In this document: in pieces, positions 10,636-47,119 of the stretch | How positions within the stretch are numbered: the stretch's first letter is position 1 | Layout of the letters: each line of letters begins with the position of its first letter | NCBI RefSeq assembly: GCF_000026545.1 | Contig: NC_011601.1 | DNA from: Escherichia coli O127:H6 str. E2348/69 | GTDB taxonomy: Bacteria > Pseudomonadota > Gammaproteobacteria > Enterobacterales > Enterobacteriaceae | Direction: 5' to 3' (one strand) | DNA length: 64,000 nt | The notes under the pieces: generated by a model | Told to the model about the DNA's origin: nothing | The model's database searches: none | The model's input: only the letters and a program-made list of their open reading frames with translations | Position numbers and translations under genes: made by a program

Positions 10636-10660
10636 AAAGAAAAAAGGCCGCAGAGCGGCC
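10636..10660. repeat. attL core (direct repeat aaagaaaaaaggccgcagagcggcc)
   Basis: Identical 25-mer found again at 47095..47119; the hairpin ggccgcagagcggcc is the ihfA terminator stem. Confidence 0.85.
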
Positions 10661-10766: not shown

Positions 10767-11183
10767 TCATTCGCTCCCCTCTTTTTCCTTATTTCGTTGA
10801 ACGCCAATTGCGACACACGTACTAAGCAAATCTTTACATTTCTCTACATCTTCAGACTTACGCAATTTGATGCTTTTTACAGACTGCGGGCTACTGTCCG
10901 TAGCACGATACATCGTTATTTCAATATCATTTCGGTCTAAGAGTCCCATAATGGCTTTTGCAACCTCCACACCCTTCTTCGCGAAATCAAAGAACAGAGC
11001 AAGTTTATATGGATTTTCGACGGAAAAAACTTCAATTTTGCTAAAACCAACATCGTGTAGAGAAAAATATTGCTCAACCTCATCTCGAAGTTCTGGATCG
11101 CATACAATGTCTATTCTCCAGTACTGACCTAAATGCAAATCGCTATTAACTGTTTTTTCCACAACATCCTCCTTACCCAGCAA
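10767..11183 (-). CDS. hypothetical protein (cargo gene downstream of int, abutting attL)
   Basis: 138-aa ORF overlapping the int stop by 11 nt; acidic, no recognisable motif; no P2 counterpart at this position. Confidence 0.5.
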   Translation of the reverse strand: MLGKEDVVEKTVNSDLHLGQYWRIDIVCDPELRDEVEQYFSLHDVGFSKIEVFSVENPYKLALFFDFAKKGVEVAKAIMGLLDRNDIEITMYRATDSSPQSVKSIKLRKSEDVEKCKDLLSTCVAIGVQRNKEKEGSE

Positions 11184-12147
11184 TAGGATTAAATCTCACC
11201 GCATCCTGCAAGTAATCCGGCGCAAGATGGGCATAAATCATCGTTGTCTGAATCTTTGCGTGCCCCAGAATTTTCTGGAGCGTCAGAATATTGCCGCCGT
11301 TCATCATGAAATGACTGGCGAAGGTGTGGCGCAGCGCATGAACAGCCTGGCCGTCAGGAACATCAGGTGCGACCGTTTTGATGACATCGCGAACCAATGG
11401 ATAATCCAGCGTCGGAAACACCAGTTTCCCGCCCCGTTTTTTGATCTTTTCAAACAGGCTTTCAGAAATAGGAACGGTACGGTTTTTGCTGTTCTTCGTT
11501 TTTGAAAAAGTGATTCGACAATGAAGAACACGGCGCTGCTCCAGTGCCGCTACCTCGCCCCATCGCGCCCCGGTCGACAGAAGGATTTCGACAGCCAGCC
11601 GTTCATCGGGATTTTCAGCCAGTGCATCCAGCAACTGAACACATTCAGACTTACTCAGATATCCCATTTCGCGCTCGTTAACCTTCATTCCTTTAAGGCC
11701 TTGAACGGGGTTATCGTTAAGAAAATGGCCGGATGAGATGAGTGCGGTAAACATCGCGCTTAACGCCCCAATCTCTCGATTAATGGTGCTGGGCTGTATC
11801 CCCTGCTCTATCCTGGACACACGTAGCTCGGTGAGCATCGTTGTATTAAGTTTATGCACACACGGGTCATCCATTGCCTCACTCAAGCGCAGCAATTTAA
11901 GGCGCGTGTTATGCCCTGACTTCATTAGCTGGCCGTGGTATTTCCACCACAAGTCAATAAGCACCGACAGCGGACGGCGATCAATGGAGTTTCCTTTCCA
12001 CTCATTGTTATGCTGTTGCGCCAGCACCCACCGCTCATATAAAACTGCATCCGATTTCGTTTTAAATTTTTTGCGAATGCGTTTGCCTTTACGCCCCTCA
12101 GGGCGCATGTCAAGAAGATACCCTCCCGGAATTGATTTTATGCTCAT
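11173..12147 (-). CDS. int: P2-type tyrosine integrase
   Basis: Product from MSIKSIPGGYLLDMRPEGRKGKRIRKKF closely parallels P2 Int; C-terminal HALRHTFASHFMMNGG ... LGHAKIQTTMIYAHL catalytic motifs; the listed ORF extends upstream to 12297 but the P2-like start is the internal Met. Confidence 0.9.
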   Translation of the reverse strand: MSIKSIPGGYLLDMRPEGRKGKRIRKKFKTKSDAVLYERWVLAQQHNNEWKGNSIDRRPLSVLIDLWWKYHGQLMKSGHNTRLKLLRLSEAMDDPCVHKLNTTMLTELRVSRIEQGIQPSTINREIGALSAMFTALISSGHFLNDNPVQGLKGMKVNEREMGYLSKSECVQLLDALAENPDERLAVEILLSTGARWGEVAALEQRRVLHCRITFSKTKNSKNRTVPISESLFEKIKKRGGKLVFPTLDYPLVRDVIKTVAPDVPDGQAVHALRHTFASHFMMNGGNILTLQKILGHAKIQTTMIYAHLAPDYLQDAVRFNPIAG

Positions 12148-12196: not shown

Positions 12197-12505
12197 TTAA
12201 CCGGGCTGTGTACCAGTCTTGCGGGATTTTTGAGAAGACGATGTGTTTTCTGGCCCATCAGGGGAGAGAGAGGGACTGATCTGCCCAGCAGCCTCATTTG
12301 TTTTTCCCGTCATAAGCCAATTCATGTACTTAAAAAAGCGAGGGTGATTAACAATCTTGATAAGCACTTCGCCCCCTATGTTTTCAATCCGCCCCGTTTC
12401 ATAACGACGCAAAGTGCCGATAGGCACATCAATCAGGCCGCAAAATTCTTCGCGCGTTAAATCCTCTGATTCACGAATCACTCTAATTTTTTCACCGATA
12501 AGCAT
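12197..12505 (-). CDS. C: immunity repressor C (HTH)
   Basis: 102-aa ORF; HTH segment and C-terminal GQISPSL ... SSSQKSRKTG resemble P2 C; divergent from the early operon. Confidence 0.8.
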   Translation of the reverse strand: MLIGEKIRVIRESEDLTREEFCGLIDVPIGTLRRYETGRIENIGGEVLIKIVNHPRFFKYMNWLMTGKTNEAAGQISPSLSPDGPENTSSSQKSRKTGTQPG

Positions 12506-12601
12506 TGACAGTGTTCCTATAAGTACACTAAGCTTGCGCGCAAGGTGTACTTATAAGTACACCAAGTCACAAACAACCACAGATAGCGCAGGTTATCACA
12601 C
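12506..12601. promoter_or_regulatory. immunity switch region with direct-repeat operators (Pe/Pc)
   Basis: Two copies of tataagtacac(t/c)aag about 33 bp apart, beside a ttgaca -35-like hexamer, between divergent C and cox-like genes. Confidence 0.6.
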
Positions 12602-12880
12602 ATGGCAAAAGTCCTGAACACACACGAACAGGCAGACTTTGAGCGTTTAGCAGCGTTCTATCCCTACCGCGATGAGCATGGGTTACCAGTACTTGAAGAA
12701 AGCCTGAAAGATTACGCAAAGCGTACCAACCAAGCTGTTAACACAGTGAAAAGACAGGCTGACAGAGGTTCAATTCCCATCAACCAGGATGAAAAGAACT
12801 CAAGACGCACAGTAAATCTCTTCGCTCTTTTCCTGAAAACAATCAGGAGCGCAGAAAAATACGTGCAGATGACAAAATAA
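12602..12880 (+). CDS. putative Cox/Apl-type early regulator and excisionase (positional call)
   Basis: 92-aa first ORF of the rightward early operon; no confident sequence similarity to P2 Cox. Confidence 0.45.
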   Translation: MAKVLNTHEQADFERLAAFYPYRDEHGLPVLEESLKDYAKRTNQAVNTVKRQADRGSIPINQDEKNSRRTVNLFALFLKTIRSAEKYVQMTK

Positions 12881-17839: not shown

Positions 17840-18799
17840 ATGAAAATTTGTATCGACGACGGCTCCACCAACATCAAGCTGGCATGGACTGAGAACGGCG
17901 AACACCGCAACGCCATCAGCCCGAACAGCTTCAAGTCGGAATGGTCTGCGCCGTTCGGTGGCACGCAGCCCGCGAACTACATGCTTGATGGCGTGCGCTA
18001 TGGTTTTGATCCGGTCAGCGATCGCTTTGTCCAGACGACCGACACGCAATACCAGTACAGCGATGTGAATGTCATTGCCATTCATCATGCGCTGGTCAAA
18101 TCAGGCATCACGCCACAGGAGGTGGATGTGGTTGTCACCCTGCCACTGAGCGAGTATTTCGACACAAACGCACAGCCGGACATGGCCAACATCAACCGCA
18201 AAAAAGCGAACGTTATGCGCCCGGTGGAGTACCAAAACGGCGAGGCATTCACTATCCGTAACGTGCGGGTTATGCCTGAATCCATTCCGGCTGGCTTTAA
18301 AGCACTGGCTGACATGAGTCCGTTTGAATCCCTGCTGATTGTGGATTTGGGCGGAACCACGCTGGATGTGGCAAAGGTTCAGGGGCAACTGGCAGGTATC
18401 AGCCAGGTGTTTTGCGATCCACACGTAGGCGTTTCTCTGATGGCCGATGCCGTGCTGTCGGTGATGGCCACCAACGGTATGCGCACCAGTCACCACATCG
18501 CCAATACCATTATCGAACATCGCCACGATGAAGCCTGGCTGCGCCAGCACATCCACAATGACGCGCATTACGCCAGCCTGATGGCAGTTATTCGTGAAAA
18601 GGAGGAAACACTGAAACAACGCGTGATCCGCGCGCTGGCGGTTTTTTCGGGTTACGGGCGGGTGATGGTTGTCGGTGGAGGGGCGGAGATTGTGGCACCC
18701 GCTATCCGCGAAGCCTGCGGAGTTAATGCGACTTTCATCGCGGACGGGGTGCCACAGTTTGCTCTGGTTAATGGGCTGTACGCAATGGACAAGGAGTAA
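17840..18799 (+). CDS. ParM/StbA-type actin-like segregation ATPase
   Basis: 319-aa ORF; N-terminus MKICIDDGSTNIKLAWTE and the segments YSDVNVIAIHHAL, VMPESIPAG, LLIVDLGGTTLD, VMVVGGGAE parallel plasmid R1 ParM (StbA) along the whole length. Confidence 0.8.
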   Translation: MKICIDDGSTNIKLAWTENGEHRNAISPNSFKSEWSAPFGGTQPANYMLDGVRYGFDPVSDRFVQTTDTQYQYSDVNVIAIHHALVKSGITPQEVDVVVTLPLSEYFDTNAQPDMANINRKKANVMRPVEYQNGEAFTIRNVRVMPESIPAGFKALADMSPFESLLIVDLGGTTLDVAKVQGQLAGISQVFCDPHVGVSLMADAVLSVMATNGMRTSHHIANTIIEHRHDEAWLRQHIHNDAHYASLMAVIREKEETLKQRVIRALAVFSGYGRVMVVGGGAEIVAPAIREACGVNATFIADGVPQFALVNGLYAMDKE

Positions 18800-18803
18800 A
18801 CCA

Positions 18804-19115
18804 ATGACGACTCCAACCAGACGGATAAGTTTCTATCTGAAGCCCACCGCCGTCAAGAACGAAGGAGAAGCATGCGCCTGGCTGGACAGCCTTACACCAG
18901 AAGCCCGCAAAAGCGGCCAACGCGTGGCTTTTCTGGCCGGGCTGGCACTTCTGAAAATGAATCCGGCAGAGGCTTACCGACTGGCTGCATGGGCTGATGA
19001 TGAGGTGTTATCAGTGACACAAACCAAGACAGAACGCCCCGCGTCACAGCCAGTATCAACCGCACAGATAACCAGTCAGATGGCCGGAAATATCCGGGCG
19101 TTATTTCCTGAATAA
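18804..19115 (+). CDS. ParR/StbB-like adaptor protein
   Basis: 103-aa product from MTTPTRRISFYLKP inside the listed 18669..19115 ORF; N-terminal region parallels R1 ParR (RRxIxFxLxP ... LDS ... AGLAL); follows the parM-like gene. Confidence 0.6.
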   Translation: MTTPTRRISFYLKPTAVKNEGEACAWLDSLTPEARKSGQRVAFLAGLALLKMNPAEAYRLAAWADDEVLSVTQTKTERPASQPVSTAQITSQMAGNIRALFPE

Positions 19116-19493: not shown

Positions 19494-20576
19494 ATGGTAA
19501 ACGTGAGGGAGGATGAACTTTTCAAACTCATCGAGCAAGGCATCAAAGGCAACGCAAATGCATTTACACTCCTATGCAGAAAGATGATTAACAACATCCG
19601 TAAAAATGATGAGGCTTTAGCTTCTAAGCTGGCTTCGTTAGTTGCTGAGGGAACAGTATTACGTGGGGCATCTAGTAAGGCTCCTATGCCTGTGGATGGA
19701 GACTCCAGACGAAACCTTTTGCAGGAAACATCTGTCAACGCAATTGTTGAAGAACCTGTATGGAATACGGATATCTCAAAGAAGCTGGAGTCAATTGTTA
19801 ACGAAAGAGAGAATGCGGTTTCTTTGTTCAAAGCTGGTCTTGAACCTGTGAAGACGGTTTTACTTTCTGGCCCGCCAGGCGTAGGCAAAACAATGTCCGC
19901 ACATTGGCTTGCTGCAAAGTTAAATTTACCTCTTTTAACATTGGATCTCTCATCTGTAATGAGTTCTCTTTTGGGAAAAACAGGTAATAATATTAAATCC
20001 GTTATGGATTATGCCAAAGAGAAACCATGTGTCCTTTTGCTTGATGAATTTGATGCTGTTGCAAAAAGACGTGATGATGACAGGGACGTTGGAGAATTAA
20101 AACGTTTAGTTACTGTACTCCTACAGACCATAGATGAGTGGCCAGCGACCTCGCTTCTTGTTGCTGCGACTAATCACCCTGATATCTTAGATCCGGCTGT
20201 TTGGCGTCGATTTGAGCACATCCTTAAATTTAATATGCCATCAGTAGAACTGATAGATAGATATTTAGTCAATCATAATATTGAACCTGAACTATCTAAA
20301 AAACTTGCACCATTATTAGATGGCATGTCCTTTGCCATCATTAACCGTATTTTGAATTTCTCCAAAAAGAATGAGGTACTTAGAAATATTCCATTTGAAA
20401 GCTCATTAATAGAAGCCGTAATTACGGAGAGGGTTTCATTGGATGAGTTTAGCGATAATGATCTCAATATAATTAAATATCATTTTGACGGTTTTTCAAA
20501 TAGGAAGATAGCTGAATTAGTTGGTGTTTCACATCCAACAATCGCGAATAAATTACAAAAGTGGGGGATTAAATGA
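19494..20576 (+). CDS. AAA+ ATPase with C-terminal HTH-like segment (candidate defence component A)
   Basis: 360-aa ORF; Walker A LLSGPPGVGKT, Walker B VLLLDEFDAV, sensor-1/Arg-finger ATNHPDILDPAVWRRF; C-terminal NRKIAELVGVSHPTIANKL; AT-rich codon usage. Confidence 0.8.
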   Translation: MVNVREDELFKLIEQGIKGNANAFTLLCRKMINNIRKNDEALASKLASLVAEGTVLRGASSKAPMPVDGDSRRNLLQETSVNAIVEEPVWNTDISKKLESIVNERENAVSLFKAGLEPVKTVLLSGPPGVGKTMSAHWLAAKLNLPLLTLDLSSVMSSLLGKTGNNIKSVMDYAKEKPCVLLLDEFDAVAKRRDDDRDVGELKRLVTVLLQTIDEWPATSLLVAATNHPDILDPAVWRRFEHILKFNMPSVELIDRYLVNHNIEPELSKKLAPLLDGMSFAIINRILNFSKKNEVLRNIPFESSLIEAVITERVSLDEFSDNDLNIIKYHFDGFSNRKIAELVGVSHPTIANKLQKWGIK

Positions 20577-22777
20577 TGGAAAGGAACTTACTTTTAGGTA
20601 ACGGTCATGTTCTGACAAAAAAGGAACCTTTGCCTAAAGGAAGGGATGGTAAGCGCTATCCCTATACTCTTGAAGAAGTAAGGGAGCATTTAAACCCAGA
20701 GATTGATACTTTACTCTCACGCTTTCGCAGTTTGGATGATGCGGCTAAGCCAAGGGGGGAGAGTGTATTCAATTTAACTTTACACCCAGCGTTTTTGGGT
20801 AAAAGCTACTTTCCGGAAGGATTGCTTAGAGCGACAGGTTTACGGGATGTCGGCAGCCGTCAGGTAATCATTCGCCCACGGAAAGCGGCACGTCAGTGCG
20901 ATCAGAATAAGGACTTAGTAACGGCGCAACTGTTTGTTAGCGGTGATGATGATGCCGTTATAAGATTTAAGGAAATTTTAAATTCCCCTACAGCTCCGAA
21001 GGGCGTACAAAAGGATTTGATCGAAATTGAAAGTGTTAGCTTTTTTGAAGGAAAAGAGAGAGCACGCAATTTTGAGCATGCGAAAAGTGATTTGATAAAA
21101 TTTGAAGTGGTTCTTCATGCTGGGGTTGAAGACGATGATATCGTTAAAGCCTATATTAGCTATGCGGCACAATATGATGTCTCTGTTGATTACAAAAGTA
21201 GAATCCAAGTTGGTGGGCTGACTTTCATCGTTGCACACGCGCGACCTGAAGATATGAAAAAAACACTCGATTTTTCATTAATCCGCGTTGTGCGGCCGAT
21301 GCCGTCTCTCAGGTGTACTCAGCCGAACATTGTCAGAAAGTTATCTAATATAGTTACACCGGAGCTCCCTAATTCTAAAGCTGTTCTTGAATCCGAACGT
21401 ATTGCCATTTTTGATGGTGGCTTGGGGACAGCTGACTTGAGTAATTGGGTTACGGAATACGTGTATCCAGACACCAAAGAAACAAGCGGATTATTATTGC
21501 AGCACGGTAATGAAGTGACATCCACTTTCTTATTCGGACGTGTCGAGGAAAATGCACCTTCTTTTAAAAGACCGTTTATGAATGTAGATCATTATAGAGT
21601 TCTTTCACCGACATCAGGTGACAATGGCAATTGGGATTTATTTGATGTCCTTAAGAAAATACAGTCCGTTCTTGATAGTGGTGACTATAAGTTCGCTAAT
21701 CTAAGTATTGGTCCTCATCTTCCAATTGGTGATGATGAGGTTCATGTATGGACTGCTGTTTTAGACCAAATCTGTGCTAAGCATGGGATATTACTTACTG
21801 TTGCTGTTGGGAATGATGGCAATGAGGACGGTGATGCAGCGAGAATACAACCTCCTTCCGATATGGTAAACGCGCTAGCGATTGGTGCTGCTGATCGTAG
21901 CGGTGAAAAATGGGGGCGGGCACCATATAGCTGTATTGGGCCAGGCAGAAGCCCCGGATTCGTTAAACCTGATGGTGTTATTTTTGGTGGAAGCGACGAC
22001 GAGCCTTTTTACACTTACAACCCTCTGCTTGGTTCTATAGTTGGAGTTCAAGGAACCAGTTATGCCTCTCCATTAGCATTGAGAACGGCCGCTGGAGTTG
22101 CGGCTCTATCAGGAACTCCATTGAACACCATTGCATTGAAAGCGTTGCTTGTTCATCATGCTGAAACATCAAGAAAATATTCGCGTGAACATATCGGTTG
22201 GGGACGGTTTAGTGAGGATCCTAACGTTTTAATCGATTGTCCAAATGATACTGCTACAGTAATTTACTATGGTTCATTAGCAAAAAATAAATATTTAAGG
22301 GCACCGATCCCATTCCCTGATGTTCCCTTTGACGAAGCATTTGAGCTTACCGCTACTTTATGCATTCAAACCCCAGTAGATCCTGAACATTCAGTAAACT
22401 ATACAAGGGCCGGTATGCAGGTAACTTTCCGCCCAAGATTCGGCCTTGACGATACCGATACAGATGATTTCTTTGGTCAAAAAAGCCAGTATAAGACTGA
22501 AAGGGAGTGTAGGAGTGAAGGTCATAAGTGGGAAACTTGTTTGCACAGAAGCAAAAAGTTCAGTGCTGATACATTATTAAGCGATCCAGTTTTTGATATA
22601 CGGTATCATGCCCGAGATTCTTCGCGCCATGTTAAGGGAGTTTCAGCCCCTGATATGCAATATGCGATGGTAATAAGCGTAAGGGTAAAAGACTTTGATT
22701 TATATAATGTTATTCGCCAGCGATATACAATTCTGAATCCTATTCAACTGCGCACACAAATTTCTCTCGACACGTAA
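20573..22777 (+). CDS. subtilisin-like S8 serine peptidase, large multidomain, no signal peptide (candidate defence component B)
   Basis: 734-aa ORF, ATGA-overlapped with the ATPase gene; S8 motifs in order: Asp IAIFDGGLG, His LLQHGNEV, Asn VAVGNDGNEDG, Ser GVQGTSYASPLAL; about 260-aa N-terminal and 200-aa C-terminal extra regions. Confidence 0.8.
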   Translation: MMERNLLLGNGHVLTKKEPLPKGRDGKRYPYTLEEVREHLNPEIDTLLSRFRSLDDAAKPRGESVFNLTLHPAFLGKSYFPEGLLRATGLRDVGSRQVIIRPRKAARQCDQNKDLVTAQLFVSGDDDAVIRFKEILNSPTAPKGVQKDLIEIESVSFFEGKERARNFEHAKSDLIKFEVVLHAGVEDDDIVKAYISYAAQYDVSVDYKSRIQVGGLTFIVAHARPEDMKKTLDFSLIRVVRPMPSLRCTQPNIVRKLSNIVTPELPNSKAVLESERIAIFDGGLGTADLSNWVTEYVYPDTKETSGLLLQHGNEVTSTFLFGRVEENAPSFKRPFMNVDHYRVLSPTSGDNGNWDLFDVLKKIQSVLDSGDYKFANLSIGPHLPIGDDEVHVWTAVLDQICAKHGILLTVAVGNDGNEDGDAARIQPPSDMVNALAIGAADRSGEKWGRAPYSCIGPGRSPGFVKPDGVIFGGSDDEPFYTYNPLLGSIVGVQGTSYASPLALRTAAGVAALSGTPLNTIALKALLVHHAETSRKYSREHIGWGRFSEDPNVLIDCPNDTATVIYYGSLAKNKYLRAPIPFPDVPFDEAFELTATLCIQTPVDPEHSVNYTRAGMQVTFRPRFGLDDTDTDDFFGQKSQYKTERECRSEGHKWETCLHRSKKFSADTLLSDPVFDIRYHARDSSRHVKGVSAPDMQYAMVISVRVKDFDLYNVIRQRYTILNPIQLRTQISLDT

Positions 22778-37762: not shown

Positions 37763-38362
37763 ATGCAAATTGGCTATATTCGTGTGTCAACAAATGACCA
37801 GAACACGGATTTACAACGCAATGCACTGAACTGCGCAGGATGTGAACTGATTTTTGAAGATAAAATCAGCGGAACGAAATCAGCCAGACCGGGATTGAAA
37901 AAACTGCTCAGAACGCTATCAGAAGGAGATACGCTGGTTGTCTGGAAGCTGGACAGACTGGGCAGAAGTATGAAACACCTGATCACGCTTATTGAGGAAT
38001 TGCGGGAAAAAGGTGTTAATTTCCGTAGTCTGACGGACAGCATTGACACATCAACACCCATGGGGCGTTTCTTTTTTCACGTCATGGGGGCTTTAGCCGA
38101 AATGGAACGTGAATTAATTGTAGAGCGTACACTGGCCGGGCTGGCAGCAGCACGCGCACAAGGACGCATTGGCGGACGTCGCCCGAAGTTGACAAAAGAA
38201 CAACACGAGCAAATAGCGAGGCTGATTAAAAACGGTCATGACAGGAAACAACTGGCGATCATTTACGACATCGGCATATCGACGATTTATCGTTATCACC
38301 CTGTAGGCGATATACAGGCTGAAGAAACAACCAGGCAGACTCAGGAAAATAAAAACCGCTAA
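37763..38362 (+). CDS. serine recombinase DNA invertase (Gin/Cin/Pin/Hin family)
   Basis: 199-aa product MQIGYIRVSTNDQNTDLQRNAL ... LVVWKLDRLGRSMKHL ... GRIGGRRPKLT, near-colinear with Mu Gin; the listed ORF 37568..38362 includes a spurious upstream extension. Confidence 0.92.
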   Translation: MQIGYIRVSTNDQNTDLQRNALNCAGCELIFEDKISGTKSARPGLKKLLRTLSEGDTLVVWKLDRLGRSMKHLITLIEELREKGVNFRSLTDSIDTSTPMGRFFFHVMGALAEMERELIVERTLAGLAAARAQGRIGGRRPKLTKEQHEQIARLIKNGHDRKQLAIIYDIGISTIYRYHPVGDIQAEETTRQTQENKNR

Positions 38363-46562: not shown

Positions 46563-46775
46563 ATGGTCGGAGGGAATACCCGAAGGCCAGATGTGGAAAG
46601 GCCCCGGAAAACATCTCTGTTTAACCGAGGCCCTAACCGCATTACCTTGACAAGTGAAAGGTTAGCGCCTCTCCGGAAAAGGAGCAAGTGCTATGTCGCA
46701 AAAATCGCTTACGGCCATCACGTTCTGCGTGACGGCAATCCTCATCATCTGGATGTTGCACGGTTCGCTGTGTGA
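46563..46775 (+). CDS. mok-like overlapping leader reading frame of the hok-type locus
   Basis: 70-aa ORF overlapping the hok-like gene in another frame, as in hok/mok/sok loci. Confidence 0.4.
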   Translation: MVGGNTRRPDVERPRKTSLFNRGPNRITLTSERLAPLRKRSKCYVAKIAYGHHVLRDGNPHHLDVARFAV

Positions 46776-46833
46776 AATACGGATGAGCTTCTGGGGAGCG
46801 GAGTTTGCGGCGTTCTTACAGTGTAAGCAGTAA
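46693..46833 (+). CDS. Hok/Gef-family type I toxin (small membrane protein)
   Basis: 46-aa ORF MSQKSLTAITFCVTAILIIWMLHGSLCEIRMSFWGAEFAAFLQCKQ: one TM helix, then the Hok-family SLCEIR and AAF motifs; ggag RBS upstream; not in the ORF track (under 60 aa). Confidence 0.7.
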   Translation: MSQKSLTAITFCVTAILIIWMLHGSLCEIRMSFWGAEFAAFLQCKQ

Positions 46834-47094: not shown

Positions 47095-47119
47095 AAAGAA
47101 AAAAGGCCGCAGAGCGGCC
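47095..47119. repeat. attR core (direct repeat) overlapping the ihfA terminator
   Basis: Same 25-mer as at 10636..10660; on the minus strand it gives the ggccgctctgcggcc hairpin plus T-tract just downstream of ihfA. Confidence 0.85.

Follow-up and report, generated by a model that had tools for sequence, protein, structure and literature searches.

The immunity switch of a P2-family prophage in Escherichia coli contains two dyad-symmetric DNA sites, O1 and O2, on the predicted early promoter Pe. We put at roughly 85% the probability that O1 and O2 are the two operators where a P2-type C repressor turns off Pe. Judged from its sequence, the region would be an ordinary P2-family immunity switch of uncharacterised specificity, and its modest twist is the dyad symmetry of the operators, a property apparently shared by most of the family. 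The analysis covered a stretch of 64,000 nucleotides (the window) from the chromosome of the enteropathogenic E. coli O127:H6 strain E2348/69.

The switch region and its two dyads

The prophage is 36.5 kb long and is flanked in the E. coli E2348/69 chromosome by btuC and ihfA. Its late genes (capsid, portal, terminase, sheath, tube, tail and ogr) are of the P2 type. The prophage ends share an exact 25-bp match, the att core AAAGAAAAAAGGCCGCAGAGCGGCC, which is present as a direct repeat with a left copy at 10636-10660 and a right copy at 47095-47119, between the prophage and ihfA. A GC-rich hairpin, GGCCGCagaGCGGCC, lies inside the 25-bp core, and together with the run of T residues after the right copy it resembles a terminator of the host in the btuC-ihfA interval. 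The BtuC permease is listed as an auxiliary metabolic gene in a survey of P2-like viruses from 2026 (PMC13100340). Since btuC is a plain host gene adjoining attL here, we speculate that some of the BtuC auxiliary-metabolic calls may be boundary artefacts.

Other prophage genes were also recorded. An open reading frame of 131 to 138 residues (10767-11183, minus strand), annotated as hypothetical and without a Pfam match, is cargo at the prophage end, located between the att site and int. In this integrating P2-type prophage, 17840-19115 (plus strand) codes for a ParM-like segregation ATPase and a protein for partition or stability, both of them unusual for P2 itself. Following the genes for replication and ParM, an AAA ATPase and S8 peptidase pair (19494-22777, plus strand) matched the anti-phage proteins IetA (E=3.6e-89) and IetS (E=6.6e-41) in PADLOC, and by these matches the IetA/IetS-like pair is predicted defence cargo in a P2-type variable region. 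Toward the right end, an invertase-type recombinase gene (about 37763-38362) adjoins partial tail-fibre genes, which suggests a host-range inversion switch, and a Hok/Gef-family toxin gene (about 46693-46833) lies beside ogr; the coordinates of these two genes were converted from the RefSeq record.

As the original prediction had it, the site under study lies between two divergent genes. The 102-residue C immunity repressor is encoded by the open reading frame at 12197-12505 on the minus strand (Pfam HTH_3; phrog_147), and the integrase gene int (11173-12147, minus strand; RefSeq annotation, Pfam Int_N and Phage_integrase) is downstream of it in a C-int operon. Divergent from this operon is the early operon, which begins with a cox-like open reading frame of 92 residues (12602-12880, plus strand; phrog_575), followed on its 3' side by a DUF4761 gene and a gene for a 940-residue replication endonuclease. 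The repressor matched the P2 C structures 2XCJ and 2L49 over residues 3 to 98 (E=4e-16) and was 47% identical to P2 C in a tblastn search. At the DNA level the switch region had no match in 50,697 phage records, and its link to P2-family phages came from the protein-level search only. The cox-like product matched phrog_575 ("Cox-like excisionase and repressor") over residues 34 to 84 only (E=1.1e-7), gave a weak BLASTP match to the helix-turn-helix (HTH) region of P2 Cox (7/25 identities, E=6e-5) and had no Pfam match. From these comparisons, the product appears to be only remotely Cox-like.

The original prediction placed a pair of direct repeats between the two genes, and two 15-mers are indeed found there, tataagtacactaag at 12518-12532 and tataagtacaccaag at 12552-12566, with a start-to-start distance of 34 bp and a gap of 19 nt. 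In a repeat search the pair extended to 22 nt with 86% identity (12511-12532 and 12545-12566). The 11-mer TATAAGTACAC occurs in direct copies at 12518-12528 and 12552-12562, with the same 34-bp period, and in a third, inverted copy at 12545-12555. Because of this inverted copy, which the original prediction overlooked, the true units are two dyads. O1 (12511-12528) is an 18-bp imperfect dyad, GTGTTCCTATAAGTACAC, in which 7/9 pairs are mirrored (14/18 positions symmetric) and the right half carries the 11-mer. O2 (12544-12563) is a perfect 20-bp palindrome, GGTGTACTTATAAGTACACC, with 10/10 pairs and the arms GGTGTAC and GTACACC, and it contains both the second direct copy and the inverted copy of the 11-mer. 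With at most one mismatch allowed, TATAAGTACAC was found nowhere else in the 64-kb window.

We then placed the dyads on the predicted promoters. A strict consensus scan returned no promoter in the region, and a position weight matrix (PWM) scan gave one strong sigma-70 match, TTGACA-18-TAAGCT, with a score of 12.3 against a shuffle 95th percentile of 11.3. In this predicted Pe (plus strand), the -35 TTGACA at 12505-12510 overlaps the start codon of C (CAT, 12503-12505), and the -10 TAAGCT is at 12529-12534. The repeats had been described as overlapping TTGACA, which is not the case: the hexamer abuts the extended repeat and is 7 nt upstream of the first 15-mer. The 18-bp spacer of Pe coincides exactly with O1. 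O2 begins 10 nt past the -10 and, with a predicted Pe start near 12542, would cover about +2 to +22, so that the two dyads sit either side of TAAGCT. For C itself we found only a tentative promoter, the candidate Pc at 12618-12590 on the minus strand, composed of TTCAGG (12618-12613), 17 nt and TAACCT (12595-12590) with an extended -10 TG; its PWM score of 6.6 is below the shuffle mean of 7.8.

The Shine-Dalgarno sequence of C, AGGA (12514-12517, minus strand, 9 nt before the ATG), lies within the left half of O1, GTGTTCCT. The reverse complement of this half, AGGAACAC, differs from the half-site AAGTACAC by two changes, and these create the AGGA. From this we infer that O1 is less symmetric than O2 because its left half doubles as the ribosome-binding site of C. 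The left-half motif GTGTTCC is kept in 5/10 of the orthologues described below.

The positions of the dyads suggest how the switch would work. Bound at O1, C would occlude the spacer between the -35 and -10 of Pe, and bound at O2 it would occlude the start site and the first 20 or so transcribed bases, so that RNA polymerase would be excluded or its escape blocked. Each operator consists of two GTGTAC-type arms about 13 bp apart, a spacing that fits a symmetric C dimer reaching two successive major grooves. One dimer would then occupy each dyad, with 34 bp between the two centres; binding is probably cooperative and accompanied by DNA bending, both of which were measured for the C proteins of P2 and WPhi. 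Symmetric recognition is an extrapolation, since the studied members P2 and WPhi use non-palindromic repeats. As 34 bp is 3.2 helical turns, O1 and O2 do not point in quite the same direction around the helix. Transcription from Pc must traverse both sites, and high C could therefore also limit its own synthesis; in P2, high C limits C synthesis (PMC3448106).

Conservation of the dyads

We counted the C allele as present when a match covered at least 80% of the C-to-cox query at an identity of at least 98%. By this threshold the allele was found in about 114 of 5,426 complete E. coli genomes, including enteropathogenic (EPEC), Shiga toxin-producing (STEC) and enterotoxigenic (ETEC) strains. 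Among the IMG/VR relatives (80 listed, with roughly 560 more beyond), 37 loci had the same or a near-identical C DNA-binding domain. In these 37 loci among the matches listed, the 11-mer core of O1 was invariant, and the core of O2 carried a single substitution in 1 locus. The original prediction expected the repeats to be conserved among prophages that share the C allele, and the near-invariant cores bear this out. Substitutions in the 37 listed loci clustered at 12538-12539, in the spacer between the dyads, and at 12564-12568, just 3' of O2. The trailing "caag" of the second 15-mer is outside the conserved site, as it varies among prophages with the same repressor. The repeats first proposed are real, and their quoted extents are slightly off.

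A palindrome in the spacer, cttgcgcgcaag (12533-12544), was considered as a third operator element and rejected. It occurs in a minority of alleles only and is broken in 32 of the 37 listed loci with the same C domain, where the sequence is CTTGCGCACAAG in 31 loci and CTTGCGCATAAG in the other. The orthologues have unrelated spacers.

Orthologues with a C identity of 88 to 56% were taken from contigs of Salmonella (two), Klebsiella, Yersinia, Edwardsiella, Providencia, Serratia and two metagenomes. One layout was shared by 10/10: a -35, an O1 of 17 to 18 bp, TAnnnT, 7 to 9 variable nt and a 20-bp O2, with a centre-to-centre distance between O1 and O2 of 32 to 34 bp. For the six further genera and one metagenomic orthologue, the C identity was 83 to 56%. 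The Pe -35 was kept in 10/10, and the -10 position read TAnnnT in 10/10, with TAAGCT, TATTCT, TAATCT, TAACAT, TAAGAT, TAAAGT, TAATAT and TATAGT among the versions. In 6 of the 7 orthologues that keep GT(L/M)RRYET in helix 3 of C, the O2 arms GGTGTAC and GTACACC were unchanged between flanks that could not be aligned. The central 6 bp of O2 differed among orthologues (TTATAA, TAATAA, TTAAAG, CAAGAG) while the arms were kept.

Where the arms changed, they changed symmetrically. The Yersinia orthologue, which keeps GT(L/M)RRYET, has the O2 arms GGTGTtC and GaACACC, a mirrored double change that retains 10/10 symmetry. In the orthologue L097, whose helix reads GSLKRYET, the O2 arms are GGTAC and GTACC and the half-site of O1 is altered in step, to AAGTACCC. 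The Serratia orthologue (helix PTMKRYET) has a new O2 dyad, GGGTTCTC-aa-GAGAACCC. The original prediction started from the premise that C binds direct repeats rather than palindromes. Given a perfectly palindromic O2 whose arms change symmetrically, and an O1 that is also a dyad, the non-palindromic half-site model of P2 does not describe this allele.

Base-contacting positions of P2 C have been proposed from its structure (PMC2995052), and the residues of the window C aligned to them are I29, T31, R33, R34 and R39. R33 accompanies GGTGTAC arms, and K33 accompanies GGTAC or GGTTC arms. A candidate specificity determinant is therefore residue 33 (numbered as in the window C), an Arg or Lys that aligns with Ser35 of P2 C.

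We also surveyed 22 distinct C specificities for the best 9-pair dyad centred 45 to 55 bp after the start of the -35. At this O2 position a dyad of at least 7/9 was present in 16/22 specificities, at least 8/9 in 8, and a perfect one in 3, counts that are indicative rather than fully independent because the surveyed alleles are partly related. At control offsets, 0 to 2 of the 22 reached 7/9 and none reached 8/9; at the O1 position, 7/22 reached 7/9. Examples at the O2 position are TGGAGCTAATTAGCTCCA, GGTTCCTTATAAGGAACC, GGTGTCAATTGACACC, AAAGTCGCCTATAGACGACTTT (allele B, described below) and TTCACCAcaTGGTGAA (UTI89, immunity class IX). Within this survey the O2 dyad was absent from P2, WPhi, the WPhi-like L175, A24 and the phiT5282H/SEN4 type. 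A degenerate dyad sought at the O2 positions of P2 and WPhi gave 4/9 and 5/9 pairs only, and the 7/9 dyad at O1 of WPhi is not significant alone. Separately, in phages phiT5282H and SEN5 (L089/L090) the repeats GGTAGGGATCTCTACCAT and GGTGGTAATCTCTACCAT are dyads of the GGTAG-N6-CTACC type upstream of C; they lie partly within the annotated 5' end of C, so the annotated start codons may be too far upstream.

These counts incline us, by a little over even odds, to a family-wide reading in which dyad operators are the rule for P2 C proteins, each "half-site" is a full site for one symmetric dimer, and P2 and WPhi are atypical. On the same reading, overlap with the promoter spacer and with the ribosome-binding site of C may be what makes O1 degenerate in general. 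We found no description of dyad-symmetric operators in the P2 C family among the papers searched, and the 2026 survey of P2-like viruses contains nothing on repressors or operators (PMC13100340).

The sites could also be read as in P2. P2 C is described as binding non-palindromic direct repeats, and all seven classes then known seem alike in this (PMC2995052). In its crystal structure, P2 C forms a symmetric dimer that resembles palindrome-binding proteins, and one dimer per "half-site" was proposed (PMC2995052). Applied to the window, the model proposed for P2 C (PMC2995052) would limit recognition to the directly repeated 11-mer, read by one helix of each dimer with the other in non-specific contact, and the left arm of O2 would be there incidentally or for some other purpose. 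The degenerate but tolerated left arm of O1 fits such recognition, as does the want of an O2 dyad in P2 and WPhi. However, the left arm of O2 is conserved as well as the right in orthologues of six further genera, it mirrors the changes of the right arm in Yersinia, L097 and Serratia, and allele-specific dyads recur at the same offset in 16/22 specificities. We consider recognition of the 11-mer alone unlikely.

Alternatively, the dyads may serve RNA, either as a 5' stem-loop on the Pe transcript or as a hairpin between the transcribed O2 and O1 (O2':O1') that hides the ribosome-binding site of C. For the predicted Pe leader, the computed fold has a terminal hairpin of 8 bp (-19.6 kcal/mol, z=-3.3). 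Because one palindrome underlies both O1 and O2, pairing of O2' with O1' could bury the Shine-Dalgarno sequence in the C leader (12490-12585, minus strand), and the computed fold does show this pairing across it (-31.9 kcal/mol, z=-3.7). Mirrored arm changes preserve both stems, and since the dyads would form hairpins in both transcripts, such changes alone cannot separate protein symmetry from RNA pairing. On the other hand, RNA pairing leaves unexplained why the sequence tracks the recognition helix of C and swaps with the C DNA-binding domain, and why O1 at the promoter spacer resembles O2; the C-leader fold further rests on an unproven Pc start. An RNA purpose in place of C binding is thus quite improbable, though the dyads could act at the RNA level in addition to binding C. 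The O2':O1' hairpin of the C leader could provide translational control of the repressor or be a mere by-product of two similar palindromes.

Exchange of the immunity cassette

Sister E. coli prophages carry other alleles of the switch, and we compared two of them with the window, O104:H4 (allele B) and A24 (allele C). The stretch 12317-12575, roughly 260 bp that comprise C codons 1 to 63 (the DNA-binding domain), Pe, O1 and O2, was about 50% identical to alleles B and C and effectively unalignable. The flanks, in contrast, were 97 to 100% identical on the left, in the 3' third of C, and about 83 to 93% identical to the right of 12575. In alleles B and C an unrelated HTH domain and unrelated repeats replace 12317-12575, while Cox is similar, and the int product of A24 has the same accession as that of the window (WP_000023776.1). 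The sequence GGTTATCAC at the candidate Pc is kept across alleles A, B and C. In the comparison with L004, L005 and L006, sister E. coli prophages have flanks up to 100% identical around unrelated C N-terminal domains and operators. The boundaries of recombination are sharp, and the right one lies directly after O2.

The converse arrangement was found in two Klebsiella-type loci (L048 and L093), in which the same operator type stands beside a different cox gene. The exchange next to the same Int and a similar Cox, together with these two loci, indicates that the repeats track the DNA-binding domain of C and not Cox, Int or the att site. The comparison supports the view that the predicted operators and C residues 1 to 63 form a single cassette of about 260 bp that would set immunity specificity. 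The original prediction had held that the repeats are the C operators and that their sequence defines the immunity specificity of the prophage. Both proposals gain support at the level of sequence from the placement of the repeats on the predicted Pe, as in WPhi, from their conservation with the recognition helix of C, and from their exchange with the C DNA-binding domain in sister prophages.

The same comparison bears on whether the repeats bind Cox, Int or IHF, for recombination or for control of Pc, instead of C. The Cox and Apl proteins of P2 and 186 do bind direct repeats in their switch regions (PMC7498355, PMC3936717). Against this, A24 has entirely different repeats despite an identical Int and a similar Cox, L048 and L093 have the same repeats despite a different cox gene, and the repeats of the window are on Pe rather than on the candidate Pc. 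Binding of these proteins in place of C is very improbable. A chance repeat is excluded, as 300 shuffles of the intergenic sequence yielded neither a direct repeat of 11/11 nor a dyad of 9/9, and the notion that the TATAAG motifs (5/6 matches to TATAAT, present on both strands) are tandem -10 boxes was ruled out because they have no suitably spaced -35 and the central 6 bp vary in orthologues while the arms are kept, which leaves this last pair of explanations a negligible share.

Comparison with characterised switches

The closest likeness to the predicted operators is to those of WPhi. The WPhi half-sites are 10 bp long and 34 bp apart and span the -10 (PMC1904268, PMC1904263); site-directed mutation placed C binding at these repeats, and mutating both abolishes repression (PMC1904263, PMC1904268). 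The two repressors belong to the same C family, with 38% identity in the alignment. WPhi has CAT, TTGACA, 6 nt, TATTGGTGAC and TTATAT, with the second TATTGGTGAC 34 bp after the first, and when counted from the start codon of C, the first repeat begins at nucleotide 16 and the second at nucleotide 50 in both phages. The repeat itself differs (TATTGGTGAC in WPhi, TATAAGTACAC in the window), and heteroimmunity with WPhi is therefore expected. In addition, the WPhi O2 lacks the dyad that is perfect over 20 bp in the window, and the Cox proteins and early operons are unrelated or remotely related. At the level of sequence, the predicted operators have the WPhi geometry with a different sequence.

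P2 has a homologous repressor, encoded like that of the window in an operon with int, and its two operators flank the Pe -10, as the predicted ones do in the window. Its cox gene is divergent from this operon, as is the cox-like gene of the window, whose product appears only remotely Cox-like. Its half-sites are 8 bp long and 22 bp apart, and those of P2 Hy dis are 8 bp long and 26 bp apart, spanning the -35 (PMC1904268, PMC1904263). P2 differs in being non-palindromic at the O2 position, in a C start codon that overlaps the -35 on its 3' side, where that of the window does so on the 5' side, and in an intergenic region of 114 bp against 96 bp. The window thus has the repressor of about 100 residues with an HTH, homologous to P2 C, and the two repeated sites flanking the Pe -10 that mark a P2-type switch. 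It does not have non-palindromic half-sites, as O2 is 10/10 and O1 7/9 symmetric and the arms co-vary in mirror image. Non-palindromic half-sites are a property of the characterised members and not of the protein family; their absence here lowers the case for a switch exactly like that of P2 and leaves family membership untouched.

By the published criterion (Karlsson 2006; Nilsson 2011), a phage belongs to an immunity class when its C is at least 95% identical to that of the class representative. Membership of the WPhi class (class III), which requires the same operator and such a C, is excluded by 38% identity and different repeats. Of the three classes compared, P2 (class I), WPhi (class III) and UTI89 (class IX), none is the class of the window. 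The UTI89 prophage was rejected as a carrier of the same allele; the allele differs, though its O2 is palindromic too. In the UTI89 switch (L101, 946882-946984 region), which encodes a 173-residue "Cox family" protein and a 113-residue C, the operator plan is alike: the Pe spacer holds TTCACCA, and the palindrome TTCACCAcaTGGTGAA follows 32 bp further downstream.

Two dyad-binding HTH-dimer proteins offer an analogy, though not a membership. Massad et al. noted that P2 C is structurally similar to P22 c2 and to the controller protein C.Esp1396I (PMC2995052). In both of these systems, as predicted for the window, each dimer has a dyad of 18 to 20 bp with an AT-rich, variable centre, and two dimer sites act jointly. 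They differ in protein family and in spacing (15 bp between the two adjacent dyads of C.Esp1396I).

Phage 186 is also P2-like and has face-to-face lytic and lysogenic promoters. Its CI repressor is in a separate class of size and sequence from the P2-type C proteins of about 100 residues, binds inverted repeats and distant flanking sites, and is accompanied by cII (PMC1904268, PMC3448106). The window encodes a 102-residue P2-type C, and long-range extra sites of the 186 type, sought with at most two mismatches, were not found within 64 kb; a CI switch of the 186 type was therefore rejected as the model. The original prediction had proposed a comparison with the operators of P2, WPhi and 186, and in that comparison the WPhi layout and 34-bp spacing recur with a different sequence, and 186 does not serve as the model.

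If the predicted operators are correct, they and C residues 1 to 63 would set which P2-family phages this lysogen resists by immunity. For the study of P2 itself, a naturally palindromic operator would provide a direct test bed for the symmetric C dimer, and the sister cassettes in near-identical switches form a convenient set for following the co-evolution of repressor and operator. If dyad operators do prove to be family-wide, they would resolve a puzzle that the crystal structure of P2 C raised, namely how a symmetric dimer comes to bind asymmetric DNA.
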